Shown here: positions 1,770 to 62,602 of the stretch, one piece after another | How the letters are laid out: every line of letters starts with the position of its first letter | Position numbering within the stretch: the stretch's first letter is position 1 | From: an uncultured Chloroflexia bacterium | Lineage (GTDB): Bacteria > Chloroflexota > Dehalococcoidia > DSTF01 > JALHUB01 | Reading direction: 5' to 3' | NCBI GenBank assembly: GCA_963726245.1 | Contig: CAVSBT010000019.1 | Coordinates: 43,709-107,708 of the forward strand | Length of the DNA: 64,000 nt | Notes under the pieces: generated by a model | What the model saw: the letters and a program-made list of their open reading frames with translations, nothing else | Told to the model about the DNA's origin: nothing | Database searches by the model: none | Made by a program: the position numbers and the translations under genes

Positions 1770-3420
1770 ATGGCCCAGATCGACGGCGGTGAGCTGGTGG
1801 CCCGCACCCTCAAGCAGGAGGGCATCGACTGCATCTTCACCCTCTGCGGCGGCCACGTGATGAACATCTATAACGGCTGCCTGGACCACGGCATCCGCGT
1901 CGTCGACGTGCGCCACGAGCAGGCCGCCGGCCACGCCGCCGAGGGCTGGTCGCGCGTCACCCGCCGGCCCGGCGTGGCCGTCGTCACCGCCGGCCCCGGC
2001 GTCACCGACACCGTAACGGCCGTCGCCAACGCCTACCAGAACCGCAGCCCCATGCTCCTCATCGGCGGCGCGGCGCCGCTATCCCAAGCGCAGATGGGCG
2101 GCCTCCAGGAGATGGAGCAGGTGGACCTGCTGAAGCCCATCACCAAGTGGTCGGGCACCGCCTACCAGACCCGTCGCATCCCCGAGTACCTCCAGATGTG
2201 CTTCCGCATCGCCATGAGCGGCCGCTACGGGCCGTGCTTCCTGGAGATGCCCGCGGATGTCCTCTTCGGCCGCGTCGAGGAGGGTGAAGTCGCCATCCCC
2301 CAGAGCTACCGGACCGAGGGCCGCGTCCAGGGCGACCGGCGCCTGGTCGCTGAGGCCGCCGCCCTGCTCGACAAGGCGGAGCGACCGGTGGTGATGGCCG
2401 GCAGCCAGGTCTACTGGTCGGACGCGGCCGACGCCCTGCGCCGGCTCAGTCGAGCGCCTGGGGGCGCCGGTGTACCTGAACGCCATGGCACGGGGCTCCA
2501 TCCGCCAGGACCACCCGCTGTTCTTCTCGCGCACGCGCAGCGCCGCCCTCAGCGAGGCCGACGTCGTGCTGGTGATCGGCACGCCCATGGACTTCCGCCT
2601 GCGCTTCGGTCGCGCCTTCAGCGACGCCTCGAAGATCATCCAGGTGGACGTGGACCCCACGGAGATCGGCCGCAACCGCCCCTTCGACATCGGCATCGAG
2701 GGCGACGCCGGGGCTGTCCTCGCGCAGATGCTGGCGGAGCTGGGCGATCCGCCGCCGGCGGACGACGGCGGCGCCTGGGTCAAGGGCCTGCGCGAAAAGG
2801 AGGACCAGGTGTGGGAGCTGCGCCAGCAATGGCTGCGCTCCGACGCCGTCCCCATCCACCCGCTGCGCCTCTGCCACGAGATGGCCCAGTTCGTTGACGA
2901 CGACACCCTGGTCGTGGGCGACGGCGGCGACATCGTCAACCTGGCGGCCCAGGTGCTGCCCATTAACCACCCCGGCCAGTGGTTCGACCCCGGGCCCATG
3001 GGCACGCTGGGCGTCGGCACCGGATTCTCGATGGCGGCCAAGATCGCCCAACCCGAGAAGAGGATCCTGATGGTGAACGGCGACGGCGCCTTCGGGCTCA
3101 ACGGCTTCGAGTTCGACACCTTGGTGCGCCACAATTTGCCCGTGGTGTCGGTGATCGGGAACGACCGCCGGTGGGGGCAGATCGCGGTTGGCCAGGTGAA
3201 GATGTACGGTCGCGAGCGCGCGGTCGCCTCCACCCTGGCCGACAACGCCCGCTACGACCGCGTGGTGGAGGCACTCGGCGGCCACGGCGAGTTCGTGACG
3301 GAGCCGGGCGAGATACGGCCCGCCATCGAGAGGGCGTTCGCCTCCGGCAAGCCGGCCTGCGTCAACGTCATCACCGACCCGGAGCCGCCCGGCGTCGAGG
3401 GCGGCTACGAGTTCATGTGA
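1770..3420 (+). CDS. thiamine-diphosphate enzyme of the oxalyl-CoA decarboxylase / 2-hydroxyacyl-CoA lyase / acetolactate synthase superfamily, frame broken by an extra base at ~2448
   Basis: ORF 1770..2897 gives the N-terminal domain ([19 protein letters not shown]). ORF 2470..3420 gives the central and ThDP-binding domains (GDGGD...GTLGVG...NGDGAFG). Skipping base 2448 reads ...[21 protein letters not shown]. Confidence 0.85.
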
Positions 3421-6559: not shown

Positions 6560-9500
6560 CTAGGCTGCGAGGTCGATGAGCGCCTCGCGGTGCAGGCGGA
6601 CCAGCTTCTTCTGCTTGTGGAGCCGCGCTAGGGACTGCACGACCTTGGGGCTGAACTGCGCGCCTGAGCACGATACGATCTCCCGCACAGCAGCGGCGAC
6701 GGAGCGGGCCGACCTGTAGGGACGGTCATTGACCATGGCGTCGAAGGCGTCGGCCACAGAGACGATAGTGGCGGCTGTGGGGATGCTCTTGCCCACCAGA
6801 CCGTCCGGGTATCCGGTGCCGTCCCAGCGCTCGTGGTGAGAGCGGGCGATGGTGGCCGCCAGTTCGAAGCCAGGACGTTCCATCAGAAAGTCCTCGCCCC
6901 AAACCGTGTGCTGTTTCATCAGGTCCCATTCCTTGTCGGTGAGCTGGCCAGCGGTCGAAAGCACGACATCGGGCACGCGAATCTTGCCGATGTCGTGGAG
7001 GACAGCGGCCAAACCTAGCTCCTCAGCGTAGTCTTCGCCATAGCCCAACTCGCGCGCCAGAGCTTCGGTTATGCTGCGTATGCTCCGGAGGTGGAGACCC
7101 GTGGCCTGGTCGTGGGCCTCGGCGGCGGCCGCCAGCAGCACCACTGTCTCGGTGTGACCTTGCACGAGACGGGTTGAAGTCGACTGGAGGTCCTCGACCA
7201 GCGTCGCCAGCCGCACGATGGCCGTCACCTGGGTGGCGACGGCTACCAGGAACTCGGCGTCACGCGGTCCGAACGCCGCTTCCCGCTTGCTGCCCACCGA
7301 GAGGTGGCCGATAAGCTCGTCCCGCCAGATCATGGGCGCGATCAGGACCGACCGCATTCCCGCGGTCCGCAGCAGTTTCCGCTGATCCGCGGTGAACCGC
7401 TCGTCGTTCTGGGGGTCGTCCATGATGATCGCGCGACGCGTGCGCTCCTGGATGCGGCGGATGGGGGACTGGGGGGCCCCGCGCTGCGCATTACTCCAGG
7501 CGTCGACCAGATCTTCGGGCATCCGGGCAAAAGTGCTCAACCCCCCCTGTGGATTGCCCTCTGACCCGAAGAGCACAAAGTTGACGGCGTCGTAATCGCC
7601 TCCCACGGACAGCCGGTGAGCAACCAGGCGTAGCTTGTCGTTTAGGTCGTCCAGGGACGTCAGGAGGGGTACTATCTGGCCAACCATCTTGGCGGCGCGG
7701 TCGCCACCCTGAGCTCGCGAGAGCGTGCTCCCGGCCGACAGCACCGGCCGCTGTCGCCGCCAGGCGTACATGGCGCTATCGGCGAGCTTGATCAGCTCCT
7801 CGATCCTCCCGGCCTCCGTCGGGTAGATGGCGAGCCCGACACTGGCGATGATTTGAACCCTGGTGCCGGTCTCCGAATCGCGCAAGTCCACCTCTGCCAG
7901 CGTGTCAAGCACTCGTTGGCGATAGGTTTCGGCGGCTTCGCGGTCAGTGTTGGGCAAGAGGGCGACGAACTCATCGCCTCCGTACCGGCCGACGAGGGCG
8001 CCATCCCTTGCGAGCCCGCCGGCGACCGCCACGAGCACGGCATCGCCGACCTGGTGGCCGTAGGTGTCGTTTATCGCCTTCAGGCCGTCAACGTCGATCA
8101 TCGCCACGGCGTGGGATGAGCCGTTGGCATCGCCGGAAACCAGGTTCCTTAGTTCCTGGACGATCGCTCCGTGGTTGAGCACGCTGGTCAGCGCGTCGCG
8201 CCGGGCCTGCTCCCGCAGCGCCGTCTCCATCCGCTTGCGCTCGGTGATGTCTCTGAGAGCGCCTTCGACCCCGATAAAAGCGCCATCGGGGCCGCGAAGA
8301 AGACGAGCGCTAACAGAGGTATCGATGACGAGGCCGTCTCCCGTCTTCAGGTGGATTTCGTAGTCAGTGACCGCTTCCCGTTCCATGAGCGCCTGCAGAA
8401 GCGCTGAGCGCTCTTCTGGGTTGGGGTAGACGTCCAGTACCTGCGTGCCGATTAGCCCCTCACGGGTGTATCCGAACCGCTCCACCGATGGGTTGATTTC
8501 GGTGATGATCCCCTTGTCATCCGTCCGGTAATAGATGTCCTGCACGTTTTCGAAGATTCCGCGGTACTTCGCCTCGCTCTCTCTTAGCGCCTCTTCCATC
8601 CGCTTGCGCTCGCTGATGTCTCTGAGCGAGCCTTCAACCCCGAGGAATTGGCCGTCGGGGCCGCGAAGAAGATGAGCGCTAACAGAGGTATCGATGACGC
8701 GGCCGTCTGCCGTCTTCAGGTGGATTTCGTAGTCAGTGACCGCTTCCCCTTCCAAAAGCGCCTGCAGAAGCGCGGAGGGCTCTTCCGCGCTCGCGTAGAT
8801 ATCCGTCACCGGCGTGCCGATCAGCGCCTCACGGGAGTATCCGTAGCGTTCAATCGACGGGCTGATCTCAGTGATGACGCGCTTGTCATCAGTCTGGTAG
8901 AAGACGTCCTGCACGCTTTCGAAGATCTGGCGGTACTTCGCCTCGCTCTCTCTTAGCGCCTTCTCCATCCGCTTGCGCTCGGTGACATCTCTGAGGGAGC
9001 CTTCGACCCCGGCGAATTCGCCATTGGGGCCGTGAAGAAGATGAGTGCTGACAGAGGTGGTTCTGTCGAGCCCGTCTCCCGACTTCAGGTGGACTTCGAA
9101 GTCAATGACCACTCCCTGTTCGAAGAGCGCTTTCATGAGCGCTGAGCGCTCGTCTGGGTCTTTGTACATGTCCAGCACGGGCGTGCCGATTAGCTCGTCG
9201 GGGTCGTTTCCGAAGCGTCGCACCGATGGGCTGATCTCGGTGATGATGCCCTTGTCATCCGTCCGGTAGTAGATGTCCTGCACGTTGTCGAAGATGCGGC
9301 GGAACTTCTCTTCCGTCTCCCGCAGCGCCTCGTTCGAGCGTTCCAGCTCGGTCGCCGTCTGCTTCAGCGCCTCTTCCATCCGCTTGCGCTCGCTGACGTC
9401 GGTGGCCACGCCGATGACGCCGGAAACCTGGCCGCTTCGATCACGCAGCGGCGCGCAATAGGTCTCGAAGGTGAAGTCGGCCAGTTCCACCTCGACCGTA

Positions 9501-11965
9501 AGCGTTTCGCCGTCGAGCGCACGGCGGACGTAGTCCGCCATCGTCTCCAGGCCAGGGAACTTCTTGAAGACGGGCATACCCACCAGTTCCCCAGGCTTGA
9601 GCCCGAGGGCCTCCAGGCCCTTGCCCTCGGAGAGCGTGAACACGCCGTCGCGGTCCAGCGCGAACAGCATGACCGGGACGCTGGCTATCACGGTGCGCAG
9701 GCGCTCCTCGCTCTTCTTGAGCGCCTCTTCCGCTCGCTTGCGCCCGCTGATGTCTCTGATGGAACCTTCGAACCCGACGGGAGCGCCGTCGGGGCCACGG
9801 AGCAGGTGGGCGTTTAGAGACCCGTCGATCACACGTCCGTCGGCAGCCTTCACCCGAATCTCGTAGTCGGTGACCTCTCCCCGCTTCAGGATCACTTTTA
9901 GAAGTGCAGACCGCTCCCCCGGCGTCTCATAGATTGCTGTCACCGGCGTGCCGATTAGCTCCTCGCGGGTGTATCCGAACCGCTCCGCCGATGGGCTGAT
10001 ATCGGTGATGATGCCCTGGATGCTGGTCTGGTAGTAGATGTCCTGCACGTTCTCGAAGATCTGGCGGTACTTCGCCTCGCTCTCCCTCAGCGCCTCTTCC
10101 ATCCGCTTGCGCTCGCTGACGTCCCTGAGAGTGCCTTCGACCCCGGCAAATTCGCCGTTGGGCCCGCGGAGAACATAAGTGCAGACAGAGGTATCGATGA
10201 GGCGGCCGTCTGCCGCCGTCAGGTGGATTTCGTGGTCAGCGACCTCTCCCGATTCAAAGAGCGCTTGCAGAAGCACTGAGCGCTCTTCTGGCGTGCCGTA
10301 GAAGTCTAGTACCTGCTTGCCAATTATCTCCTCGCAGGGGAACCCGTAGCGTTCGATCGATGGGCTAACGTCGGTGACGATGCCCTGGGCATCCGTCCGG
10401 TAGTAGGACTCCGGCACGTTCTTGAAGACGCGGTGGAACTTCTGTTCGCTGTCCCGCAGCGCCTCTTCCATCCGCTTGCGCTCGCTGATGTCGGTGGCCA
10501 CGCCAATAAGGCCGTTGATCTGGCCGCCGAGATCGCGTAGCGGAGCACAGTGGGCCTCGAAAGTTGAACCGGCCAGCTCCACCTCCGCCGTGAACGCTTC
10601 GCCGTCGAGCGCCCGGCGGATGTACTCGGCCATCCCCTGCACACCGGGAAACGCGTCGAAGACGGAGCGCCCTACTACTTCGCCCGGCTTTAGCCCGAGA
10701 ACCTCCAGCCCCTTGCCTTCGGAAAGTGTGAACACGCCGTCGCGGTCCACTGCGAACAGCATCACCGGCACGTTCGTCATGACGGCGCTCAGCCGTTCCT
10801 CGCTCTCTCTCAGCGCCTCTTCCGCCTGCTTGCGCCTGCTGATGTCTCTGATGGAACCTTCGAACCCGGCGGGAGCGCCGTCGGGCCCACGGAGCAGGTG
10901 GGCGTTTAGAGACCCGTCGATCACGCGTCCGTCGGCAGTCTTCACCCGAATCTCGTAGTCGGTGACCTCTCCCCGCTTCAGGATCATTCTCAGAAGCGCT
11001 GACCGCTCCCCCGGCGTCTCGTAGATCGCGGTCACCGGCGTGCCGATTAGCTCCTCGCGGTTGTATCCGAACCGCTCCACCGACGGGCTGATCTCGGTGA
11101 TGAGGCCCTGGATGCTCGTCCGGTAGTAGATGTCCTGCACGTTCTCGAAGATCTGGCGGTACTTCGCCTCGCTCTCTCTCAGCGCCTCTTCCATCCGCTT
11201 GCGCTCAGTGATGTCGGTACCCACGCCGATGATGCCGGAGACATCCCCGTCGCCATCGCGTAGCGGAGCGCAGTGAATCTCGAAAGTGACACCGGCCAGC
11301 TCGACCTCCGTGGTGAACGCTTCGCCGGCAAGCGCACGGTCGATCTGCTCCGCTATTCCCTCCGTATCGGGGAACAGGTCGATGACAGAGCGACCCACGG
11401 CTTCGCCGGGCTTCAGCCCAAGCCTCTCCAGCACCTTGCCCTCGGAGAGCGTGCACACGCCGTTGCGGTCCACCACGAACAGCTTCACCGGCGCGTTCGT
11501 CATGACGGCGCGCAGGCGCTCGTCGCTCTTGTGGAGCGCCTCTTCCGCCCGCTTGCGTTCGGTGACATCGAATGCGGCGCCGATGATGCCGGAGATCTCG
11601 CCGTCCTGACGACGGGCCGGGGCGCAGTGAGCCTCGAACGCCAGCCCGCCCACCTCGGCCGTGAAGGTGAAGGCTTCGCCCGCGAGCACACGGTCGAGGT
11701 TCTGCCTGGCGTCTGGGAGGTCGGGGAACGCGTCGAAGATCGACCGCCCCACCAGTTCCCCAGGCTTCAGCCCGAGGGCCTCAAGCCCCTTGCCTTCGGA
11801 GAGCGTGAACACGCCATCGCGGTCAATGGCGAAGAGGACGATGGGGGCGTTGTTGGCGAGTAGGCGCAGGCGCTCCTCGCTCTCGTGGAGCACCGCTTCC
11901 GCCCGCTTGCCCTTGACGTTCTTGCGTTGCGGCCTAGGTTTTGCCTTCGCCAACGCCTCTGTCAC
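6560..11965 (-). CDS. cytoplasmic c-di-GMP signalling protein: 10 PAS domains - GGDEF - GAF - HD-GYP
   Basis: Single 1801-aa ORF. Ten ~120-aa PAS units of two alternating types are each bounded by (D/E)(I/V)(T/S)ERKR(M/A)EEAL. RYGGDEF motif at ~7967-7987. GAF follows. HD-GYP (HDIGK ... HHERWDGTGYP) at ~6838. Confidence 0.9.
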   Translation of the reverse strand: MTEALAKAKPRPQRKNVKGKRAEAVLHESEERLRLLANNAPIVLFAIDRDGVFTLSEGKGLEALGLKPGELVGRSIFDAFPDLPDARQNLDRVLAGEAFTFTAEVGGLAFEAHCAPARRQDGEISGIIGAAFDVTERKRAEEALHKSDERLRAVMTNAPVKLFVVDRNGVCTLSEGKVLERLGLKPGEAVGRSVIDLFPDTEGIAEQIDRALAGEAFTTEVELAGVTFEIHCAPLRDGDGDVSGIIGVGTDITERKRMEEALRESEAKYRQIFENVQDIYYRTSIQGLITEISPSVERFGYNREELIGTPVTAIYETPGERSALLRMILKRGEVTDYEIRVKTADGRVIDGSLNAHLLRGPDGAPAGFEGSIRDISRRKQAEEALRESEERLSAVMTNVPVMLFAVDRDGVFTLSEGKGLEVLGLKPGEVVGRSVFDAFPGVQGMAEYIRRALDGEAFTAEVELAGSTFEAHCAPLRDLGGQINGLIGVATDISERKRMEEALRDSEQKFHRVFKNVPESYYRTDAQGIVTDVSPSIERYGFPCEEIIGKQVLDFYGTPEERSVLLQALFESGEVADHEIHLTAADGRLIDTSVCTYVLRGPNGEFAGVEGTLRDVSERKRMEEALRESEAKYRQIFENVQDIYYQTSIQGIITDISPSAERFGYTREELIGTPVTAIYETPGERSALLKVILKRGEVTDYEIRVKAADGRVIDGSLNAHLLRGPDGAPVGFEGSIRDISGRKRAEEALKKSEERLRTVIASVPVMLFALDRDGVFTLSEGKGLEALGLKPGELVGMPVFKKFPGLETMADYVRRALDGETLTVEVELADFTFETYCAPLRDRSGQVSGVIGVATDVSERKRMEEALKQTATELERSNEALRETEEKFRRIFDNVQDIYYRTDDKGIITEISPSVRRFGNDPDELIGTPVLDMYKDPDERSALMKALFEQGVVIDFEVHLKSGDGLDRTTSVSTHLLHGPNGEFAGVEGSLRDVTERKRMEKALRESEAKYRQIFESVQDVFYQTDDKRVITEISPSIERYGYSREALIGTPVTDIYASAEEPSALLQALLEGEAVTDYEIHLKTADGRVIDTSVSAHLLRGPDGQFLGVEGSLRDISERKRMEEALRESEAKYRGIFENVQDIYYRTDDKGIITEINPSVERFGYTREGLIGTQVLDVYPNPEERSALLQALMEREAVTDYEIHLKTGDGLVIDTSVSARLLRGPDGAFIGVEGALRDITERKRMETALREQARRDALTSVLNHGAIVQELRNLVSGDANGSSHAVAMIDVDGLKAINDTYGHQVGDAVLVAVAGGLARDGALVGRYGGDEFVALLPNTDREAAETYRQRVLDTLAEVDLRDSETGTRVQIIASVGLAIYPTEAGRIEELIKLADSAMYAWRRQRPVLSAGSTLSRAQGGDRAAKMVGQIVPLLTSLDDLNDKLRLVAHRLSVGGDYDAVNFVLFGSEGNPQGGLSTFARMPEDLVDAWSNAQRGAPQSPIRRIQERTRRAIIMDDPQNDERFTADQRKLLRTAGMRSVLIAPMIWRDELIGHLSVGSKREAAFGPRDAEFLVAVATQVTAIVRLATLVEDLQSTSTRLVQGHTETVVLLAAAAEAHDQATGLHLRSIRSITEALARELGYGEDYAEELGLAAVLHDIGKIRVPDVVLSTAGQLTDKEWDLMKQHTVWGEDFLMERPGFELAATIARSHHERWDGTGYPDGLVGKSIPTAATIVSVADAFDAMVNDRPYRSARSVAAAVREIVSCSGAQFSPKVVQSLARLHKQKKLVRLHREALIDLAA

Positions 11966-37795: not shown

Positions 37796-39530
37796 CTAGT
37801 AGCTCCGGTATCGGGTGGCGATGGGCAGGCGGCGGTCGCGGCCGAAGGCGCGAGGGGTGATCTTGACGCCGGGCGGCGCCTGACGGCGCTTGTACTCGTT
37901 GCGGTCCACCATGATCATCACCCGCCGCACCGTCGCCTCGTCGAAGCCCTGAGCCACGATCTCCTCCAGGCTCCTGTCCTCCTCCACGTAGGCCAGGAGG
38001 ATGGGGTCCAGGACCTCGTAGGGGGGCAGGCTGTCCAGGTCCAACTGGCCGGGACGTAGCTCGGCGGTCGGCGGCTTGTCGATGACGCTCTGGGGGATGA
38101 CCGGGCCGCCATCGCAGCGGTTGCGGTAGTGGGCCAGCTCGTAGACCAGGGTCTTGGGCACGTCCTTGAGGACGGCGAAGCCGCCCGCCATGTCGCCGTA
38201 GAGGGTGGAGTAGCCGGTGGCCATCTCGCTCTTGTTGCCGGTGGTCAGCACCAGCCAGCCGAACTTGTTCGAGATGGCCATCAGAATGTTGCCCCGGATG
38301 CGGGCCTGCAGGTTCTCCTCGGCTATGCCCTCCTCAGTGCCTGCGAAGGGCTCCGCCAGCATTTGGAGCGAGGCGGCGAAAGCCCCCTCGATGGGAACCG
38401 ATAGCAGGCGCAGTGCCGAGGTTGCCGGCCAGGGCGGCGGCGTCGGTGCGGCTCCCCTCCGACGAGTAGCGCGAGGACATGGAGACGCCGACCACGTTCT
38501 CGGCGCCGAGGGCATCCGCCGCGATCACCGCCACCAGGGTGGAGTCGATCCCGCCGGAGAGTCCCACCAGCACCTTCTCGAAGCCGTTCTTGCGCACGTA
38601 GTCCCGCGTCCCCAGCACCAGGGCGGCGTACACCTCCGCCGCCGGCTCCAGCGGCGTGCACTCGGCAGGCGGCAAGGGGGGCCTCTTGCCGGTCGCGCGC
38701 TTTGGGGACACATCGATAGTGGGCGACAGGCCCGATGCCGCCGCCGACAGCTTGTCCTTGCGTCGCCGGGGGTCATGGAGGCGGACCTGCCGCACCTCCT
38801 CCAGGTTCAGGTCGCAGACCAGAAGCTGCTCCTCGAACTGGCGGCAGCGGGCCAGCAGGTCGCCGCGGGGGTTGAACACCATGCTTCCGCCGTCGAACAC
38901 CAGCTCGTCCTGGCCGCCGACCGGGTTGAGGTAGCAGAGGAAGACCGCGTTGTCGCTGGCGCGAGTGGAGAGCATGCGCTCCCGGAAGTCGCGCTTGCCG
39001 GCGTGGAAGGGCGAGGCGGTGATGGTGACGATGACCTCGGCGCCGCCGAAGGCCTCGCTGCGGGCGGGGTCGCCCGGGTACCAGATGTCTTCGCTGATAG
39101 TGAGGCCGACGCCCGCGCCGGCCACCCGGAACACCGGCGACTCTCTGCCGACCTGGAAGTAGCGATTCTCGTCGAAGACGCCGTAGTTGGGGAGGTACTG
39201 CTTACGGTAGACGCCCGCCAGTCGACCGTCATGTATCACGGCGGCGGCGTTGTAGATGTCATCATCCTGGTCCACGAAGCCCACCACCAGAGTGAGGCCG
39301 CTGGTGGCTGCCGCGACCTTCTCCAGGGCCTGCAGGTTGTCGTCGATGAACCGCTGTCGTAGGAGAAGGTCCTCCGGGGGATAGCCCGTGATGGCCAGCT
39401 CGGGGAAGCAGAGCAGGTCCACCCCCAAGTCGCGGCCGCGCGCCGTGTACTCGAAGATCTTGGCCAAGTTCCCTTCGAGGTCGCCCACGGTAGGGTTGAT
39501 CTGAGCCAGACCGACCCGCAGGACTCGCAC
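37796..39530 (-). CDS. nadE: glutamine-dependent NAD+ synthetase (nitrilase-like domain + NAD synthetase domain), frame broken near 38411-38417
   Basis: CN-hydrolase part ([12 protein letters not shown]...[15 protein letters not shown]...ISEDIW) and ATP-PPase SGGIDS come from ORF 38334..39695. The C-terminal part ([22 protein letters not shown]...) comes from ORF 37796..38515. Start set at GTG 39530 after GGGAGAG. Confidence 0.85.
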
Positions 39531-40026
39531 CGGCTTCTCTCCCTTGCCTGCACTCTTTTCGTCATTATCGGTTCCCCTCGAAGGGCGGGTCAAGCTAGCG
39601 AGCCGGGCGGACGTCGTGGCTAGCCTGCCTGTAGGGCTGCCGTGGCTCTCTTCAGGCCGACCCCGCACGCTTGAGTTGCCGCCTCGACGCACCACGGGTC
39701 ATCTTGCCAAGGATGACCCCCTGCTCAACCTCTGCTGGTACCTGGGGCCGACGTTCTCTCCCCTTACGCTTGCGGTTTCGGGCCCAGCCACAGGGTTTGT
39801 GGCGGGCGGCTTCTTCATGGGGCAGCCCTCAGGGGACTGAGTACTGCCACAACCGATGATCTAGACACAGGCCCCGGATACCGGGGCCTGCGACTTTCCG
39901 CTCTGGGTTGGCGCCCGCCTTTTCTTGTGCAGCCCAGCAATCCACGTCCCACCGGCGATCGTAAAATATAGTGAGGAGGAGAGAAAGCAAGGTCGCACTC
40001 ACCGCCTCCTTGGTTAGCCCCCGTCC

Positions 40027-40098: not shown

Positions 40099-40196
40099 TG
40101 GCGGGAGTGGGAGGGAGTCGAACCCACCCAGGACGGCGCTGACCGCCCCGCAACGGTTTTGAAGACCGCGAGGCCCACCGGAACCCATCCACTCCC
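40099..40196 (-). tRNA. selC: tRNA-Sec (anticodon UCA)
   Basis: Reverse complement reads GGGAGTGG-AT-GGGTTC CGGT GGGCCT-C-GCGGT CTTCAAA ACCGT-(long variable arm GGCG GTCAG CGCC)-GTGGG TTCGACT CCCTC-CCACTCCC-G-CCA. Features: 8-bp acceptor stem, 6-bp D-stem with 4-nt loop, anticodon loop C-T-TCA-A-A, long extra arm, G73, encoded CCA. One mismatch in the T-stem. Confidence 0.8.
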
Positions 40197-53217: not shown

Positions 53218-54039
53218 TCACGGGCCGGCGGAGAAGGCCTTCTCGTAGAGGGCCCTCACCTCAGCCGGTGGCAGGTCCTGACCCAGATAGTGGCTGCCCA
53301 GCCAGATCTCGAAGTGAAGGTGGTTCTCGGTGTCGGGAGCGGTGACCGACTCCGGGGTGCCGGAGTCGCCGACGTAGCCCAGCTCCTGGCCTACCTCCAC
53401 CGTCACACCCACGTCGATTCCGGTCGCGATGCCCTCCAGGTGGGCGTAGCGCGTTACCAGCCCTCCGCCGTGGTCCACCCAGATCTGACGGCCGCGAAAG
53501 GTGTCCAGGATGTCGGGGGCATTCGCCTCGCCCTGAGCAAGCCGCTCATTCAGCGACTGTAGCTCGTCCGCGGTCAGGTCGTGGTAGTTCCAGGTGGCGC
53601 GAACCACGCGCCCCGCCTTCACCGCCCGCACCGGCGTTCCCCGCACAATGGACACGCAGTTGTCGATGCCGTAGAAGTCGACTCCCTGGTGGATGCCGTT
53701 GCGGTACTGGCGAGGGGCGTTCGGCATCATGTCGTCACTGGTTGGCAGACAGGCGCCCTCGATAGGAAAGATGAGGCCCTGCACCTCGGTCACCGGCGCT
53801 ACCGTCGCCGTCGGTTCCGCGACCGGCGAAGGCGTCGGCGCTAGGGGCGTAATCTGTACCTTCGACGAGCCCTCGCCGCTGTTGCAGGCGGAGACCAGCA
53901 CAGCTAGGCATGCCAGCAGGGCCGGCACAAAGGCGGTGCGCAGGTCGGCTGCCTCCTTTCCCCGACGAGGGGAGATCGATTCAGGATAACCAGAGCCCGC
54001 GAGTCGGGCAAGTGTGTGGGTGTCAGGCAATCTGTCCAC
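53218..54039 (-). CDS. M23-family metallopeptidase, probable lipoprotein
   Basis: Lipobox LVSACNSG. HQGVDF ... HGGGLVTRYAHL ... GYVGDSG ... HLHFEI (HxxxD / HxH motifs). Confidence 0.8.
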   Translation of the reverse strand: MDRLPDTHTLARLAGSGYPESISPRRGKEAADLRTAFVPALLACLAVLVSACNSGEGSSKVQITPLAPTPSPVAEPTATVAPVTEVQGLIFPIEGACLPTSDDMMPNAPRQYRNGIHQGVDFYGIDNCVSIVRGTPVRAVKAGRVVRATWNYHDLTADELQSLNERLAQGEANAPDILDTFRGRQIWVDHGGGLVTRYAHLEGIATGIDVGVTVEVGQELGYVGDSGTPESVTAPDTENHLHFEIWLGSHYLGQDLPPAEVRALYEKAFSAGP

Positions 54040-55577
54040 TCTGCCAGGCTATCTCGCCTCCCACCACCGTCATCTCCACTGTCAAGGCGCCCGTCGGCTT
54101 CTCCGACAGCACATAGCCTGCCCTCTCGACCCGCAGGCCGGACAGCAGCACCAGGTCGGCGCGCTTGCCGGCACACAGGCTGCCACGCTCGGGCTCGTCG
54201 AAGGCGGCGTAGGCGGCGGCGCGGGTGTGCATGGCCAGCGCCTCCTCGACCGATACCGCCTGGCCAGGCGCCACGGCTGCGCCTCCCGACGAGAGGCGCC
54301 GGACGGCTCCCACCAGGCCAGCGAGGGGGCCGGGCGGCGCAACAGGGGCATCGGAACCGGCCGCCACCAGCACGCCGGCCTCCAGCAAGGTGCGCAACGG
54401 GTAGAGGTGGGGCAGTTCCTTCTCCGGTACCTGCCTGAGATAGCGGTCGCCGTTGTGGTAGACGAAGGAGGGCTGGGTGACTACCAGCACACCCAGGGCG
54501 GCCAGGCGGCGGGCCAGGGCCGGCGGGCAGACCCCGCAGTGCTCGATGCGATGCCGGTGGTCGCGGCGGGGTTTGCGCCTCAACGCGGCGGCCAGCGCGT
54601 CGGCGGCGGCTGCCACGGCGGCCTCGCCCACGGCGTGGATGGCCGCCTGCCGGCCGGCCTGGTGGACGCGCCACACCGTCTCCGCCAGCTCCTCCGGGCC
54701 GGGATGCAGCTCCTCGCCCAGCTCGGCGATGACAAGTTTGACGGGGCCGCGGCGCAAGGGCAGGGAGCCGTCAGCCTCCGGCATCTCACCCAGATGACGA
54801 TAGCCCTCCATGAGAGTGACGGAAAGGGGCAGGCAGCCTTCGGCCATGAGACGGCGGAAGAGCGCCCATTCCTCCGGGCCATTCGTCACCGTGGCGTCCT
54901 GAATGGCTGTCACGCCCTCGGAGAGCAAGGCCTGCGCCGCTCGACGCACCCCGGCCGAGAGCTCGTCGTAGGGCAGCGGCGGCACGAAGCCGTCTACGAT
55001 GTCGTTCATCTCCAGGAGGAGCCCGCTGGGCTCGCCGGTAGAGACGTCTCGCTCCATGTAGCCGCCGGGCGGCTCCTCGCTGCCGGCGTCGAGCCCGACC
55101 AGGGACAGAGCGCGGCTGTTGAGGACGCAGGCCCGGCCGGTGCGGTGCACGAGGCGCACCGGATGGCGCGGCGCGGCCGCGTCCAGGTCCCAGCGCGTGG
55201 GATGGCGGCCCTCGGCCAGGTCCGTCTCGTCGTAGCCGGTGGCGCGCAGCCAGCGGCCCTCGGGCGTGCGGGCGGCCGCCGCGGACAGGGCGGCCTGGAT
55301 GTCGGCTATCGAGCGGGCGGCCCGCGGGCTGCAGTCGATCGGAGAGGAGGGAGGCGGCGTAGGAGAGCAGGTGGCAATGGGCGTCGATGAAGCCGGGCAG
55401 TAGCGTCAGGCCGCGGCCGTCGACGAGTCGCGTCTCGGGCCGGCGGTGACGCGCCACCCACGCCTCGGAGCCCACGGCCAGGAGCCGGTCGCCGGCGACA
55501 GCGACCGCCTCCGCCAGCGGCCGGGACAGCTCCATGGTGAGGGCGCGCACGTTATGGAAGATGAGGCTGGCTGGCAA
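54023..55577 (-). CDS. amidohydrolase-family metal-dependent hydrolase (Amidohydro_3 / YtcJ-like), frame broken at ~55340
   Basis: N-terminal part ...LLPGFIDAHCHLLSYAASLLS comes from ORF 54786..55577. The remainder, IDCSPRAARSIADIQ...HAVGEAAV...IEHCGV...GSDAPV..., is in the frame of ORF 54023..55159. Confidence 0.8.
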
Positions 55578-55685: not shown

Positions 55686-55829
55686 TCAGTCGGCGGAAGG
55701 GAGGACCTTGGGCTGCATCAGCTTCATGGGAGCGCCGCAGCACTCAACCCCGCCTTCTCCCGGCTTGATGCAGAGCACCTCGGTGCCACAGCTTTCGCAC
55801 TGAAATCGCTTTCCCAGTTGGTTGGGCAT
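55686..55829 (-). CDS. desulforedoxin-like mini-protein
   Basis: MPNQLGKRFQCESCGTEVLCIKPGEGGVECCGAPMKL aligns with D. gigas desulforedoxin (..[30 protein letters not shown]) including the CxxC...CC ligands. ATG follows AGGAGGTGG. Confidence 0.7.
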   Translation of the reverse strand: MPNQLGKRFQCESCGTEVLCIKPGEGGVECCGAPMKLMQPKVLPSAD

Positions 55830-55869
55830 TTGCGCCACCTCCTGGCCCCGGGGCGGTCCCTTCCAGCCC

Positions 55870-55989
55870 TCAGCTCTTGAGTTGCATAGGCTGGCCGCAG
55901 CAAACCAGCTCGCCGCTGCCCGCCCTGGTGACAATCATCTCGGTGCCGCACTTGGCACAGAAGTAGCGCTTTCCGACCTGGTTCGCCAA
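55870..55989 (-). CDS. desulforedoxin-like mini-protein (paralogue)
   Basis: (L)ANQVGKRYFCAKCGTEMIVTRAGSGELVCCGQPMQLKS. TTG start at 55989 preceded by GGAGGTGG, at the same spacing as its neighbour. Confidence 0.6.
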   Translation of the reverse strand: MANQVGKRYFCAKCGTEMIVTRAGSGELVCCGQPMQLKS

Positions 55990-56097
55990 GGCGCTGCCAC
56001 CTCCACGAGTCGAGAAGACAAGCTCCCCATCCGGCTTCGGGAAGCCGCTCACAGTCTAGCCAGCGGACTCAAGGCAGTCAAGCGCTGGAGTTCTGGC

Positions 56098-57173
56098 CTA
56101 CGTCTGGACCCCTGCGATGATGCCGCCCCCCAAGACCTCTTCGCCGCGGTAGAAGACGACAGCCTGCCCCGGCGTGATCGCCCGCTGTGGCCGCCGGAAG
56201 ACCACGCGCGTGCCGCCGCCCTCCGGGTACACCTCGGCCGGGGCGGCCGGCGTTCGATAGCGGATCTTGGCGTCGACAGCGCTGCCGGCCGGGGGCGGCT
56301 CGCCGGCCACCCAGCGCACGTCCTCGGCCCAGAGTTCGTCCGCCATCAGCTCTTCCTCGGAGCCGACGGTCACCAGGTTGTGGGCGGGGTCGATGGCGGT
56401 GACGAAGCGCTTCTCCCCCAGGGCCACGCCCAGGCCGCGGCGCTGCCCCACCGTGAACGCGGCCACGCCCTGGTGCCGCCCGATGATGCGTCCGCCGGCG
56501 TCGCGGATGTCGCCCGCAGACTGGGCCAGGCGCTCGCTGATGAACGAGCGGTAGTCGTTGTCAGGTATGAAGCAGATGTCGGTACTATCGGGCTTGCCGG
56601 CCACCGGCAGCCCCATCTCGCGGCCAGACCGCGCACCTGCTCCTTGCGGTAATCTCCGATGGGGAGGAGAAGACGGGAGAGCTGGGTCTGGTCCAGCGTG
56701 AAGAGCACGTAGGACTGATCCTTCTCGCCGTCCACGGCACGGAGGAGGCGGTAGCGGCGGTTGGAGCGCTCGATGCGCGCGTAGTGGCCGGTGGCCAGGA
56801 AGTCGGCCTCCAGGGCCACGGCGCGGGAGAGCAGCGAGGAGAACTTGACGTGCTCGTTGCAGGCGAGGCAAGGGTTGGGCGTACGGCCCCGCTGGTACTC
56901 CCGCAGGAAGTAGTCCACCACTGACTTCTGGAACTCGCGCTCCAGGTTGAGGACATAGTGCGGTATGCCCAGGGCCTGAGCGGCCTGCCGGGCGTCGTCG
57001 ATGTCTTCAACTGAGCAGCAGCGGCGGCGATGGCGGGGCGCTTGCGGGTCGTCCAGGGTCCAGAGGCGCATGGTGACGCCGATGACTTCGTAGCCCCGGC
57101 GGGCCAGGAGGCCGGCCGCGACAGCGGAATCGACGCCGCCGCTCATGGCGACGACGACGCGGGGTAGCTTCAT
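56098..57173 (-). CDS. mnmA: tRNA 2-thiouridine(34) synthase, frame broken near 56619-56624 (apparent 1-nt deletion)
   Basis: VVAMSGGVDSAVAA PP-loop, NPCLACN and ATGHYAR come from ORF 56370..57173. ...LAREMGLPVAGKPDSTDICF... comes from the frame of ORF 56098..56871. Confidence 0.9.
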
Positions 57174-57463
57174 GACAATTCATGGTATAACATCGAGGTT
57201 TGCAGGGGAATCGGTTTAACGAGGCCAGGGCATCAGGCTAGCATGTCGCTATCTGGCCTCACACGTTCGATTGGTGCCAACCACCACAACCCTGAGAACC
57301 AGGCCATCTTCGAGAACGTAAGAGATATGGGGGAGTCGGCGACTTTCGCGCCAGGGCATTCGTGTATCGTGGACACGTGGGAGACGCCGTCCGTCGGTCG
57401 CGATCGCATGCATAGGGGTCTCGCATACGTATACTGGGCGCCGGCAACGAAGTTGGGATCGAC

Positions 57464-60400
57464 ATGGATGAATTGAGGCAGTCCGGGATCGAGGTCGAAC
57501 TACTGTACGACACGGCGTTGTTCGCGAACCTGAACGACGCCATCATAGCCACCGACACGAACTGGGTGCTCACGGCCTGGAACCGCGCTGCGGAGGAGAT
57601 GTTCGGCTGGAAGGCCGAGGAGGTGCTGGGGAGGCCCTCGCAGGAGGTACTCCCCACCATCGAGCTCGCTGGGCGGCCCCCGCCGAGAGACGATGCGCGC
57701 CGCGCTCTGGCCGAGGCAGGTCGGTTCCGTGGTGAGTTAGCCTATCTGCGTAGGGACGGACGGCCGGTCGACGTCGAGACCAACGCCATCACCCTCCGAG
57801 ACCACGAAGGCGCGGTCACCGGCTACGCCACGGTCATGCGTGACATCACCGAGCGCAAGCGGTGGGAGGAAGAGATTCAAGAGCCTCGCCAGGTTCCCCT
57901 CCGAGAACCCCAACCCGGTGTTGCGAGTGAGCGAGGATGGCAGGCTCCTCTATGCCAACGAGGCGAGCAACCCCTTGCTGCCTGAGTCAGGCGCCGCGAT
58001 CGGCGGGCCTGCCCCTGCATTCCTCCAGGCCCTGGCCAGGGAAGCACTCAACAAGCAGTCAGCCACGACTACCGATGTCGAGGCGTCCGGCCGCACGTGG
58101 TCTCTCTCGGTCTCACCCGTTGTTGAATCTGGCGACGTCAACATTTATGGGCGTGACGTCACCGAGCGCAGCCGGGCCGAAGAGATGGTCCGCAAGAGTG
58201 AAGAAGAGCTTAGCAGACTAAACAGAACGCTGAAGGCGTTAAGCGATTCTAATCAGGCGATGATGCGCGCACGCAATGAGGCGGATTATCTGGACGAGGT
58301 CTGCAAGATCATTGTCGAGGACTGCGGTCATTCTATGGCGTGGATAGGATTCGCCGAAGAGGATGAAGCAAAGACCGTACGTCCGGTGGCGCAGGCAGGG
58401 TTTGAAGAAGGGTACCTTGAAACTGCGGATATCACATGGGCGGACACCGAACGCGGCCGGGGGCCAACAGGCACGGCTATACGCACCGGAGAACCCGCTA
58501 TTTGCAGGAACATGCTGACTGATCCCAGTTTTGCACCCTGGCGCAAAGAAGCTGTGAAGAGAGGATATGCCTCATCGATAGTTCTCCCGTTGACCATAGA
58601 GGGTAAGGCATTCGGCGCGATAAACATATATTCAAGAGACCCTGATCCTTTCTCCGAGAAGGAAGTGCGGTTGCTTTCCGAATTGGCCGATGACCTTGCT
58701 TATGGAATAGCGGCCATACGATTACGTGAGGAGCACGCAGAGGCCGAGGAGGCGCTGCGCGACGCCAAGCAGTCGTGGGAGCGAACCTTCGATGCCGTAC
58801 CAGACCTGATTGCAATCATAGACGAGCACCATCGCATCGTGCGAGCCAACCGCGCCATGGCCCAGCGGCTGGGGGTGACCCCCGACGAGTGCGTCGGCAA
58901 GGTGTGCCATGACGCGGTGCACGGACTGGGCTGCCCGCCGGGGTTTTGCCCGCACGTGCGCACCCTGGCTGACGGCCGGGAACACGTTGCCGAAGTGCAC
59001 GAGCCGCGCCTCGGCGGGGACTTCCTGGTCACGACCACGCCGCTTGCGGACGAGCAGGGGCGGCTCATCGGTTCGGTGCACGTCGCCCGGGACATCACGG
59101 AGCGCAAGCAGGCCGAGGAGGCGCTGCGGGAGACGCGGGACTACCTGGAGAAGCTGGTCGACTACGCCAATGCGCCGATCATCGTCTGGGACCCAAGCTT
59201 CACCATCACGCGCTTCAACCACGCGTTCGAACGGCTGACAGGGCGTCCGGCGGGCGAGGTGGTTGGCCAGCGGCTGGAGGTGCTCTTCCCCGAGGCCGAG
59301 CGCGCCGCTTCGATGGAGCAGATCGAGCGGACGCTGCGGGGCGAGTTCTGGGAGCTGATCGAGATTCCCATCCTGCACCAGAGCGGCGAGGTGCGGCGGG
59401 TGCTGTGGAACTCGGCCAACATCACCGCAGCCTGACGGCCGGACGGTCGTCGCCACCATCGCCCAAGGCACGGACATCACCGAGCGCAAGCAGGCGGAGC
59501 GGGAGATTGAACTGGAGCGCCAGCGACTCCAAACGCTGGTAGACGCGTCTCCCGTCGGCATCGTCCTCGCTGACGCCGCCGGACGTCTGCTGCTGGTGAA
59601 CCGCGAGGCGCAACGCATATTTGGCTATTCCCATGTCGAGGGCGACTCCGGATGGCACGATCGGGCGGTTCGTCGCCGCCCGGACGGTAGCGTCTATAGT
59701 CGCGACGAGCTGCCGCTCGAGCGGGCCCTCCGTCAAGGCGAGACGGTGCAGGCTGAAGAAGTCTGGTTCCACTTCCCCGACGGTCGGACCGTTCCGACGC
59801 TGACAAATGCCACACCGTTGTACGGCGCCAGCGGGGAGATAACGGGTGCCATTGCCATCATCCAGGACATCACTCCGCTGGAGGAGATAGAGAAGCTACG
59901 CAGCGAGTTCCTGGGCATGGTGACCCACGAGCTGAAGACGCCACTGACCGCCATCAAGGGCTCGGCGGCCACGGCGCTCGGAAGCTCCAGGCCGCTGGAC
60001 GCCGCTCAGGTGCGGGAGCTGTTCCAGATCATCGATGGGCAGGCGGACCGGTTGCGCGAGTTGGTGGACGACCTCCTGGACATGACCCGGGTCGAGGCGG
60101 GCTCCCTTTCCATCAACCCTGAACCCCTGGATCTGCGGGCAGTCGTCGAAGAAGTTCTGCCAACCTTTGCCAGGAGCGCCGGCCTGCGAGAGGTCCGGCT
60201 GGAGTTGCCGGACGATCTGCTGCCGGTCAAGGCGGACCGGGGCCGGATCGGGCAGGTGATGGCGAACCTTCTCACAAATGCTGCCAAGTTCTCACCGGCC
60301 GAGACGCCGATCACCATTTCGGCGGAGCAGGACCCCCTCAACGTCACGGTCCACGTCCGAGATGAGGGCCGCGGGATCGCCAGGGAGAAGCTGCCCCTGC

Positions 60401-61341
60401 TGTTCAAGAAGTTCGCGCGTTTGCACGAAGACAGCGGGCACGGATTATCGAGCACCGGCCTGGGCCTTGCCATCTGTAAGGGGCTCATCGAGGCGCATGG
60501 CGGGCGCATCTGGGCAGATAGCGCCGGAGAGGGCCATGGGACCACCTTCAGCTTCACGCTGCCGGTCGCCGCCCGGGACGTAAGCGTCGCGCCTGCCAGC
60601 GTCGAGCGGGGACCCGTCCAAACGCAGAGGGTCACCCGGCCCAGTGAGCGGACGCGCGTCCTCGCCGTAGACGATGAGCCGCATATCCTGCGCTATCTCC
60701 AGCGTTCCCTCAGTGAGGCAGGGTACCAGGCGATAGTGACCGGCGATCCTTCGGATGTCGTGGGACTCGTGGAGCTGGAGGAGCCGGACCTGGTCGTGCT
60801 AGACCTCAGGCTTCCGGGCACGAGCGGGTTCGAGCTGCTCCAGCGCATCCGGGAGCTTTCGCAGGTGCCGGTCATCTTCCTCACCGCCAGTGGCCGCGAG
60901 GAGGATGCGGTGCAGGCCCTCAAGTCGGGCGCGGATGACTACATCACCAAGCCTTTCTCGCCCTCTGAGCTGCTCGCCCGAATCGAGGCCGTTCTCAGGC
61001 GCAGGGCAGCGGCCGGCGAGACCGAGGCGCGGCACCCCCTGGCGTTCGGCGACCTGACCATCAACTTCGCAGAGCGTGAGGTGACGCTGGCGGGCCAGCC
61101 GGTCTCCCTCTCCGCTACCGAGTACAAGCTGCTCTACGAGCTGGCAACCCACGCGGGGAGGGTGCTCACCTACGACCAGATCCTCCAGCGCGTGTGGGGG
61201 CCCGAGTACTCGGGTGAGACCGAGCTGGTGCGCTCCTTCATCCGCAACCTTCGTCGCAAGCTGGGCGAAGACGCCCGCAATCCCCGGTTCGTATTGACGG
61301 AGCGCCAGGTCGGCTACAGGATGCCCAAGCCCCAGGGTTAG
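57464..61341 (+). CDS. fused two-component protein: PAS - PAS-like - GAF - PAS(Cys-rich) - PAS - PAS - HisKA - HATPase_c - REC - OmpR-type winged helix; frame breaks at ~57878 and ~59430
   Basis: Three colinear ORFs (57464.., 57840..59435, 59596..61341). The last ORF alone contains the H-box MVTHELKTPLTAI, N/G boxes (ANLLTNAAKF, GLGLAICKG), REC (VLAVDDEP...VVLDLRLPGTSG...KPF) and Trans_reg_C (LSATEYKLLYELA...RNLRRKL...GYRM) with no stop. Confidence 0.8.
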
Positions 61342-61595: not shown

Positions 61596-62081
61596 TTGGA
61601 CCCACGGCTTGCGGAAGCCACGGGTCGAGACATGATGGCGACAGCAGCTCTCCGGGAGGTCCGGGTGGAGATCAGGCCCGACAAAGGCCGGCGGCGGGTT
61701 CTGGTGGTAGAGGATGACGACGGCGTGGCGGGTATGCTCGCCATATGCCTGGCGGCAGGCGGGTTCCAGGCCTCCAGAGTCGCCTTCGGCGGCGAGGCGC
61801 TCGCCATCCTGGAGCGCGAGCCGATCGATGCCGTCGTCCTCGACCTCTCCCTCCCGGATGGTCTTGGGAAAGCGGTACTGGACCGGCTGCGTGAGCCCGG
61901 CAGTTGCTCCCCGGCCTACCTGGTCATCTCCGCCCTCGAGCGTGGAGAGGTGATGAGTAAGTTCGGGCCCCCGCGGGAGAGATTCGTGCCCAAGCCCTTT
62001 GACCCTTGGGTTCTCATCGGGAAGCTGGAGGAGCTGTTGAAAGGGTCGGAACAATTGCCGACAGAAGGAGAGTCAGGATGA
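61596..62081 (+). CDS. stand-alone response-regulator receiver
   Basis: VLVVEDDDGVAGML...AVVLDLSLPDGLG...VPKPF. TTG start uncertain (alternative ATG at 61632). Confidence 0.7.
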   Translation: MDPRLAEATGRDMMATAALREVRVEIRPDKGRRRVLVVEDDDGVAGMLAICLAAGGFQASRVAFGGEALAILEREPIDAVVLDLSLPDGLGKAVLDRLREPGSCSPAYLVISALERGEVMSKFGPPRERFVPKPFDPWVLIGKLEELLKGSEQLPTEGESG

Positions 62082-62314: not shown

Positions 62315-62554
62315 ATGCTCACGTGGAGCCGCACCCGCGAAAGGAGAATGATGATGGTCTGGCCAAAGGCGTGCCCCCATTGCCACGGAGATCTCATTCG
62401 CGACCTGGACCTGGACGGACCCTACGTGGGCTGTATCCAGTGCGGCCGCGCCCTGAACGAATCGCAGGAGCGCACGCTGCTGGGACTGTCCACCACCCGC
62501 TCCAACGGGAAGATTACGACCTCCTGGTCACGAGCGGGAAACCGAGCCGCGTAG
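62315..62554 (+). CDS. zinc-ribbon hypothetical protein
   Basis: CPHC...(17)...CIQC pattern. Start uncertain (MMMVW at ~62348). Confidence 0.4.
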   Translation: MLTWSRTRERRMMMVWPKACPHCHGDLIRDLDLDGPYVGCIQCGRALNESQERTLLGLSTTRSNGKITTSWSRAGNRAA

Positions 62555-62602
62555 TCTGTGGAGTACCGTAGCCCGCAAACGCTTGCAGTCGGCCGTGCTA
62601 TA

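Follow-up and report, generated by a model that had tools for sequence, protein, structure and literature searches.

Does one soluble polypeptide carry a complete two-component system, from sensor modules through a histidine kinase and its receiver to a DNA-binding output? The question is raised by a gene at positions 57464 to 61341 of a 64,000-nucleotide stretch of DNA (referred to throughout as the window) from contig CAVSBT010000019.1 of an uncultured Chloroflexia bacterium (GenBank assembly GCA_963726245.1; Dehalococcoidia in GTDB). A preliminary description, made from the sequence of this stretch alone, proposed that the gene encodes a multi-PAS/GAF kinase fused to an OmpR-type response regulator. 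Our analysis favours, with a probability of about 0.72, a self-contained cytoplasmic two-component system on a single chain of approximately 1291 aa, with phosphotransfer inside the chain or between the subunits of a dimer to a receiver that controls a winged helix, and with the two frame breaks that now interrupt the gene being errors of assembly.

The part of the gene that carries this reading is an open reading frame (ORF) of 581 aa at 59596..61341 (+). PAS, HisKA and HATPase_c domains, a linker of about 30 residues, a receiver (REC) and a Trans_reg_C domain follow one another in it without a stop, in the order that the preliminary description had claimed, and all five Pfam matches are well above the curated cut-offs. 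The features of this core are as follows; residue numbers refer to the 581-aa ORF and, where marked as repaired, to the 1291-aa protein reconstructed below.

ORF residues 1-92 (+), PAS domain, E 1.5e-8.
59899..60102 (+), HisKA (DHp) domain, ORF residues 102-169, repaired 812-879, E 3.5e-17.
59926..59949 (+), H-box HELKTPLT, with the phospho-acceptor histidine at H111 of the ORF, H821 of the repaired protein.
60235..60570 (+), HATPase_c domain, ORF residues 214-325, repaired 924-1035, E 6.6e-28.
60265..60291 (+), N box of HATPase_c.
60361..60378 (+), G1 box DEGRGI of HATPase_c.
60457..60474 (+), G2 box GLGLAI of HATPase_c.
60562..60654 (+), linker between kinase and REC, PVAARDVSVAPASVERGPVQTQRVTRPSERT.
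60658..60987 (+), REC domain, ORF residues 355-464, repaired 1065-1174, Response_reg E 2.1e-30; acidic pair D359/D360, phospho-acceptor D403 (repaired D1113, codon 60802..60804), T430 and K452.
61093..61323 (+), Trans_reg_C winged helix of OmpR/PhoB type, ORF residues 500-576, repaired 1210-1286, E 8e-23, spanning profile positions 1-77 of 77.

In an alignment of 29 sequences, H111, E112 and T115 of the H-box, N228, D256, G258, G260, F270 and G288-L291 of HATPase_c, D359 and K452 of REC, and many residues of the winged helix were invariant, and D403 was at least 90 % conserved; T430 was read off the sequence. With an H-box, an E/D-x-x-T/N motif and the N, G1, F and G2 boxes, the first half of the core is predicted to be a HisKA-family kinase. 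The second half has the receiver residues and the winged helix of the OmpR/PhoB regulators, though not their free-standing two-domain format (about 220-250 aa, phosphorylated in trans). Nor does the protein qualify as a one-component regulator, as an intact conserved kinase and receiver sit between the sensor and the output. None of the NCBIfam models, PhoB, MtrA and OmpR included, matched the fused protein at its cut-off, and it therefore belongs to no named family there; the partial matches to the TorS, HrmK and LvrA models all fell below cut-off. Pfam found neither HTH_AraC nor HTH_18 in the protein, and no HPt (histidine phosphotransfer) domain was found in it or among the neighbours in eight homologous loci.

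Comparison with solved structures gave the same division into two canonical halves. The closest solved relative of the kinase half is Thermotoga HK853 (E 3.5e-37, 33-34 % identity), on which the kinase part of an AlphaFold2 model of the core ORF, run as a monomer, superposes with a template modelling (TM) score of 0.81-0.83. The regulator half can be aligned over its entire length with complete MtrA, KdpE, PhoP and RegX3 (E 1e-41 to 1e-44 among the PDB relatives), and with MtrA (2gwr) the E value is 2.6e-44 and the identity in the fold alignment 40 %. Mean pLDDT (predicted local distance difference test) of the model was 77.5, with folded domains and a disordered linker (residues 327-350 below 50). 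The pair formed by REC and the DNA-binding domain (DBD) lies closer to the closed structure of PrrA (TM 0.71, root-mean-square deviation 4.9 Å) than to DNA-bound KdpE or PhoP (TM approximately 0.5, 10-17 Å), a weak hint in the model at a closed, autoinhibited REC-DBD state.

Whether the kinase and the regulator really form one protein depends on the linker, which was read codon by codon. It contains zero stop codons and zero in-frame ATG, GTG or TTG codons, and hence no separate regulator could begin there. Its distal half, R-V-T-R-P-S-E-R-T-R, fits the family motif R-x-G-E-R-T-R-[IV]-L-A-V-D-D-E, and an in-frame linker with this motif is kept in every close homologue. The homologues come from a search of a collection of 5.8 billion proteins, of which the best 120 were listed (from JGI, ENA, NCBI and Logan assemblies). 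They share 59-85 % identity with the query over 82-100 % of its length, and each of the 120 combines HisKA, HATPase_c, Response_reg and Trans_reg_C in a single chain. A scan of genomes, one per species, was evaluated for the best 80 loci, with fusion checked on ORFs running from stop to stop. At 51 of these (L001-L049, L058 and L060) a single stop-free ORF has the order kinase, receiver, winged helix, the linker being 17-31 residues long in 58 of the 59 fused ORFs and 50 residues in the remaining one; at the other 29 loci no stop-free ORF combines kinase, receiver and winged helix. The preliminary description had named a stop or an indel in the linker as the finding that would split the gene into an ordinary pair, and had asked for orthologues with the same domain order. 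The same in-frame linker is present in all 120 of the best homologues, and the order recurs both there and at the 51 genome loci. Conservation of this kind indicates that the fusion is genuine.

The gene extends well upstream of the core. The ORFs 57464..57985 and 57840..59435 carry, according to Pfam, a PAS domain, a PAS-like module, a GAF domain and two further PAS domains. Frame 3, that of the core, is open from 59359, and homologues align in it from about 59400-59440, upstream of the GTG at 59596; moreover, a PAS domain begun in piece 2 is finished only in piece 3. The upstream pieces are thus colinear with the core ORF. If a single base is skipped at 57884 and another at 59430, 1291 codons read through without a stop, and the resulting protein of 1291 aa is composed as follows.

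57464..57883 (+), piece 1, repaired residues 1-140, PAS 1 and the start of a linker helix, ITERKRWEEEIQE.
57515..57853 (+), PAS 1, repaired 18-130, Pfam PAS_4 E 5.6e-21 and PAS E 1.1e-17.
57884 (+), frame break 1, junction ...ITERKRWEEEIQE|LARFPSENPNPV..., EEEIQE being joined to LARFPSENPNPV; the extra base can be placed only to within a few nucleotides.
57885..59429 (+), piece 2, repaired residues 141-655, the PAS-like module, GAF, a Cys/His PAS and the beginning of PAS 5; Pfam matches GAF_2 (E 1.1e-22) and PAS_4 (E 1e-37, in three stretches).
57885..58184 (+), PAS-like 'FPSENPNPV' module, repaired about 141-240.
58272..58706 (+), GAF domain, repaired 270-414.
58788..59111 (+), PAS 4 (Cys/His), repaired 442-549.
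From 59145 (+), PAS 5, repaired about 561-670.
59430 (+), frame break 2, junction ...NSANITA|PDGRTVVATIAQGTDITERK...
59431..61341 (+), piece 3, repaired residues 656-1291 and the stop, from the end of PAS 5 through the winged helix.
59521..59874 (+), PAS 6, repaired 686-803.

Homologue P0003 aligns to piece 1 at 52 % identity, up to 57892. On the repaired protein, Pfam found the full series of PAS, PAS-like module, GAF, Cys/His PAS, PAS, PAS, kinase (HisKA included), REC and Trans_reg_C winged helix. The highest Kyte-Doolittle value over 19 residues is 1.3, with no segment above 1.6, and the protein is consequently predicted to be soluble, with no membrane segment. The earlier estimate of a soluble protein of about 1290 aa, with PAS or PAS-like modules and a GAF domain ahead of the core, is therefore borne out by the repaired protein. 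At 1291 aa it is longer than every one of the 120 listed homologues (the longest has 1011 aa).

The route by which such a protein might act can be outlined from its domains. The five PAS or PAS-like modules and one GAF domain would form a sensor array governing the HisKA/HATPase_c kinase, which, probably as a dimer, would autophosphorylate on H821. The phosphoryl group would then pass to D1113 of the REC domain tethered some 30 residues further on, either in the same subunit or in the partner subunit of the dimer, and phosphorylation of REC would free or re-orient the OmpR-type winged helix to bind DNA and control transcription. H-E-x-x-T is the phosphatase motif of bifunctional HisKA kinases, and as the H-box of the core ORF has it, the kinase may also act as a phosphatase on its own receiver.

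Several observations weigh against this reading. In the sequence of the window the gene is split over three frames, and its two breaks lie within 3.9 kb, downstream of the relic of one more PAS domain, yet an ORF of 5.4 kb elsewhere in the window is intact. The window's own protein was not found in the protein collection, which thus supplies no independent copy of exactly this gene. The pTM (predicted TM) score of the AlphaFold2 model was 0.45, with low confidence between domains, and docking of REC on DHp in cis is unsupported by it. No binding site or target gene of the regulator emerged when intergenic DNA was inspected in the window and at loci L084-L091, where no shared repeat was found, and the literature yielded no biochemically characterised member of the family.

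The first of these points are also those on which the alternative of a decaying pseudogene rests, that is, that the frameshifts are real and that the full protein is no longer made. The relic in question is the following.

57270..57449 (+), remnant of one more N-terminal PAS domain, out of frame with the ATG at 57464 and lacking the N-terminal third.

In tblastn against a small target, it shares 38-40 % identity over 60-66 columns (E approximately 1e-8) with the first PAS of homologues P0004 and P0108. The residues around the ATG at 57464 (GIDMDELRQ) resemble the PAS C-terminal motif D-I-T-E-R-K, and together with the relic this suggests that the sensor gene probably once reached further upstream. 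A truncated, out-of-frame PAS and two breaks close together are what decay would produce; many genomes hold several copies of the family, so that loss of one paralogue would be tolerable; the uninterrupted ORF of 1801 aa at 6560..11965 shows that indels are not uniformly dense; and the exact protein is missing from the collection.

Against decay, frameshifts of the same single-base type are found in housekeeping genes of the window. These were surveyed by Pfam split-domain checks, the GC-frame plot being too coarse for counting. In nadE, one ORF covers NAD_synthase profile positions 2-74 and the following one positions 77-242; in mnmA, the HUP domain is encoded in a different frame from the M and C domains; and an amidohydrolase gene is also split between frames. 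In tsaB, the window has an extra C near 63766 that two metagenome contigs, 92-94 % identical, lack, and each of them encodes an intact TsaB. A look-up of the ndk protein encoded nearby returned three contigs at 92-98 % identity, none extending to the sensor gene. The frameshift-bearing stretches of the window are 37796..39695 (-), 54023..55577 (-), 56098..57173 (-) and ~63766. Since essential genes are hit in a like manner, assembly indels are the most economical explanation of both breaks in the sensor gene. Furthermore, removal of only two bases restores 1291 stop-free codons with every catalytic residue intact, and the core and its nearest homologues share 85 % identity. We consequently consider decay unlikely. 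The preliminary description placed the breaks at 57878 and 59430; both stand, with repair at 57884 and 59430, and both are most likely single-base insertion errors of an assembly that seems prone to frequent single-base indels.

A second alternative concerns the genes that follow the sensor gene.

61632..62081 (+), receiver-only gene, Response_reg E 2e-10; the ORF opens with TTG at 61596 and the likely start is ATG 61632.
62354..62554 (+), four-Cys zinc-ribbon gene (CPHC...CIQCG); the ORF opens at 62315 and the likely start is the M of MVWPKAC.

The receiver-only protein has an intact acidic pocket, D, S and K, and the signature WVVISAL...KPFDPW. Its orthologues, which share 44-56 % identity in pairwise BLAST, lie beside the fused gene in eight of eight contexts, the window included, in which the fused homologues are at least 64 % identical. 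The gene is downstream of the fused gene in L084, L168, L169 and L170, and divergently upstream of it in L086/87, L088 and L171. In two metagenome loci (L089 and L091) solo receivers face the 5' end of a fused-type gene from the opposite strand. A metagenome scan starting from the solo-receiver alignment gave 5 orthologous loci of 79, one of its two search patterns being too generic. Fused genes at 61 % identity or below had no solo-receiver neighbour within 8 kb. The zinc-ribbon gene directly follows the solo receiver in four of the eight contexts (the window, L084, L169 and L170). Its products (CPxC...CxQCG) are 65-80 aa long, the homologues sharing 38-47 % identity (E 1e-12 to 1e-15), and the protein matched nothing in Pfam or NCBIfam. 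The homologous genes are at L084 9683..9880, L169 8326..8538 and L170 5760..6002.

The preliminary description had guessed that the downstream receiver-only gene encodes a partner of the kinase, and its recurrence in all eight contexts strengthens that guess. Most simply, the solo receiver can be read as another acceptor served by the same kinase, from which it would probably draw phosphate as a sink, a competitor or a second branch; the small zinc-ribbon protein may belong to this branch. The alternative goes further, and holds that the kinase signals chiefly to the receiver-only protein, with or without the zinc-ribbon protein, while the tethered REC and winged helix serve as a DNA anchor (constitutive or under different control), as a phosphorelay element or for feedback. 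The constant presence of the solo receiver with all its phospho-acceptor residues and the zinc-ribbon gene behind it in half of the contexts fit this, as does the established role of the fused receiver in ordinary hybrid kinases, where it is an intermediate and not an output (PMC9981736). However, no HPt domain was found in the protein or in neighbouring genes, the fused REC keeps all catalytic residues and is typical of the OmpR family, aligning end to end with MtrA and KdpE, and the distant members (61 % identity or below) keep the fusion with no solo receiver nearby. This alternative is accordingly quite improbable. There is next to no chance that the fusion itself is a sequence artefact, in which an indel or a lost stop in 60560..60660 merged separate kinase and regulator genes: indel errors are demonstrably present in the window and an out-of-frame GTGA at 60644..60647 looks like an overlapping stop and start, but this GTGA would be usable only with two further indels, the linker and its motif are in frame in all of the best 120 homologues from independent assembly sources, 51 independent genome loci have stop-free fused ORFs, and distant loci with split genes (in L050-L080) are clearly told apart, and the idea, examined in all three frames of the linker, was dropped because every homologue keeps the linker in frame.

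Around the fused genes, universal stress protein genes recur in L086, L168, L169 and L171, and an acetyl-CoA synthetase gene together with an acetate-transporter family gene in L086 and L171, with none beside the window copy; these recurrent genes may hint at a regulon. Scans for promoters and terminators in the intergenic regions of the window and L084-L091 gave results at chance level, and Rfam returned nothing in the sensor-gene locus. In a related strain, L081 has about 1.1 kb extra (1983..3084) between rsfS and the zinc-ribbon gene, corresponding to ~62560..62594 of the window, and this stretch includes a gene of 245 aa with no Pfam match.

Returning to the fused protein, the N-terminal sensor array differs even in P0003, which is 84 % identical, and the family thus looks like a conserved core of approximately 640 aa with exchangeable sensor modules. 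Piece 3 is this PAS-kinase-REC-winged-helix core. One of the exchangeable modules, PAS 4, contains a cluster of cysteines and histidines.

58890..58955 (+), Cys/His cluster CVGKVCHDAVHGLGCPPGFCPH inside PAS 4.

In 20 homologous PAS modules the consensus is C-[YH]-x3-H-G-x7-C-P-H, with C481, H486, C495, P496 and H497 of the repaired protein conserved (C45, H50, C59, P60 and H61 of the PAS query, each in at least 90 % of the alignment). The preliminary description had read the cluster as a sign of metal or redox sensing; four of its residues (C481, H486, C495 and H497) stand as conserved, and two further cysteines, C476 and C490 (query C40 and C54), do not. It is reasonable to propose from the conserved pattern a Cys2His2 metal site in PAS 4, for zinc, iron or redox state. 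The homologous modules, at 43-70 % identity, are in short proteins or fragments from assemblies labelled Deltaproteobacteria, Geobacteraceae and Methanosarcina, and a related Cys-rich PAS lies directly ahead of HisKA in 10 of the 120 listed homologues. No solved structure was found to have the Cys/His PAS motif.

Hundreds of relatives, mostly from Chloroflexota, share the fusion. The fused loci belong mostly to Dehalococcoidia and other Chloroflexota (Caldilineaceae, Tepidiformaceae), and are also found in Acidimicrobiia (Ca. Spongiisociaceae, Ca. Aldehydirespirator), Latescibacterota and Gemmatimonadota. Several genomes have two or more fused copies, at times adjacent. Since L050-L080, except L058 and L060, have no single three-module ORF, the taxon range had to be narrowed; Sporomusa, Brocadia, Lachnospiraceae and other distant taxa were rejected as carriers of the fusion, their matches having been joined from separate adjacent kinase and regulator genes. 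Annotations of the homologues in the source databases are generic ('PAS domain S-box protein', 'response regulator', 'ATP-binding protein'). One homologue of 61 % identity, P0092 (L001 7956..10580), has an apparent extra N-terminal receiver ahead of its PAS array.

How unusual is this architecture? In the classical pairs HK853-RR468, WalK-WalR, MtrB-MtrA and KdpD-KdpE the catalytic residues are the same, each half of the window protein being canonical, but kinase and regulator are two proteins, the regulator usually in excess over the kinase, whereas the fusion imposes a 1:1 stoichiometry and leaves the regulator unable to diffuse from the kinase. The hybrid kinases ArcB, TorS, BarA and LvrA resemble the window protein in having a receiver after HATPase_c in the same chain, but they either contain an HPt step or work through one, and they lack a DNA-binding domain. 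With an output and no HPt, the window protein is not a phosphorelay hybrid kinase, in which the receiver is an intermediate.

The characterised fused examples are the hybrid two-component systems (HTCS) of Bacteroides, which are membrane-bound, sense the periplasm and use AraC-type outputs (PMC11253607, PMC3404733). Like these (e.g. in B. thetaiotaomicron), the window protein combines kinase, receiver and DNA-binding domain in one polypeptide, and its DNA-binding domain would be tethered to a dimeric kinase. In HTCS, an inhibitory REC-DBD contact has been reported as the answer to such tethering (PMC11253607), and the model of the window protein likewise prefers a compact, PrrA-like REC-DBD arrangement. 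There the likeness ends. HTCS sit in the membrane, bind glycans with periplasmic sensors, act through an AraC-type helix-turn-helix and belong to polysaccharide utilisation loci, whereas the window protein has neither a transmembrane periplasmic sensor nor an AraC output; it is predicted to be soluble, to sense through PAS and GAF modules and to act through an OmpR/PhoB winged helix, and its family is found mainly in Chloroflexota, beside a solo receiver.

The class as such is not new. The P2CS paper, in the part accessible here, counts 249 'unusual hybrid kinases' with a C-terminal output, 72 % of them with AraC outputs and 73 % from Bacteroidetes (PMC3013651, 2010). These have the same succession of transmitter, receiver and C-terminal output, and a minority has non-AraC outputs; that part of the paper is a listing with neither function nor partner genes, and does not confirm entries with Trans_reg_C or from Chloroflexota. 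A passage in PMC3018481 cites earlier work in which fusion of kinase and regulator was tied to the lack of either a transmembrane sensor or a DNA-binding output. No characterised soluble HK (histidine kinase)-REC-OmpR protein was found in a search of the literature. The preliminary description's term, unusual architecture, is thus fair in relation to textbook systems and does not hold in relation to databases, where a large Chloroflexota family exists and the class is catalogued (PMC3013651). The window protein is best placed as a soluble OmpR-type form of the known fused kinase-regulator class and not as a new kind; its architecture is widespread in Chloroflexota and apparently unstudied. The analysis adds the solo receiver and the zinc ribbon as conserved neighbours, the PAS with its Cys-His-Cys-His tetrad, a sensor array of exchangeable modules and the error-prone state of the assembly.

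A bolder interpretation, which as a whole we regard as tentative and rather doubtful, would see in the family a horizontally spread cassette of plug-in sensors, a core of approximately 640 aa, a dedicated solo receiver and a zinc-ribbon protein. The dimer would pre-pair two OmpR-type DBDs, inactive in the closed REC-DBD state; the solo receiver would set the threshold by draining or competing for phosphate; and the Cys-His-Cys-His PAS, which Deltaproteobacteria and methanogens also have, would be a novel module that depends on a metal and senses redox state or metal.

Elsewhere in the window three other features were recorded.

6560..11965 (-), intact ORF of 1801 aa (5.4 kb) with 8-10 PAS domains, GGDEF, GAF and an HD-GYP-type HD_5 domain.
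40099..40196 (-), tRNA-Sec gene, anticodon TCA, Rfam 71 bits.
55686..55934 (-) and 55870..56052 (-), tandem small ORFs just upstream of mnmA, each with a desulforedoxin-type domain (PF06397; CxxC...CC).

From its domains, the 1801-aa product is predicted to be a giant cytoplasmic signalling protein for cyclic di-GMP (c-di-GMP). The tRNA-Sec gene implies that the organism uses selenocysteine.

The broader interest of the family lies in two questions of design. Fused kinase-regulators probe the trade-off between the amplification and diffusion that are lost and the 1:1 stoichiometry and insulation from cross-talk that are gained, and they raise the question of how a DNA-binding domain tethered to a dimer is kept silent, which to our knowledge has been studied so far only in the membrane-bound, AraC-type HTCS of Bacteroides. 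A large soluble family of OmpR type, free of the membrane, would be an easier biochemical model, and offers a natural scaffold for single-protein biosensors. For the Chloroflexota and the Dehalococcoidia, mostly uncultured organisms, the family points to a major cytoplasmic sensing route, which may link to redox or metal status.

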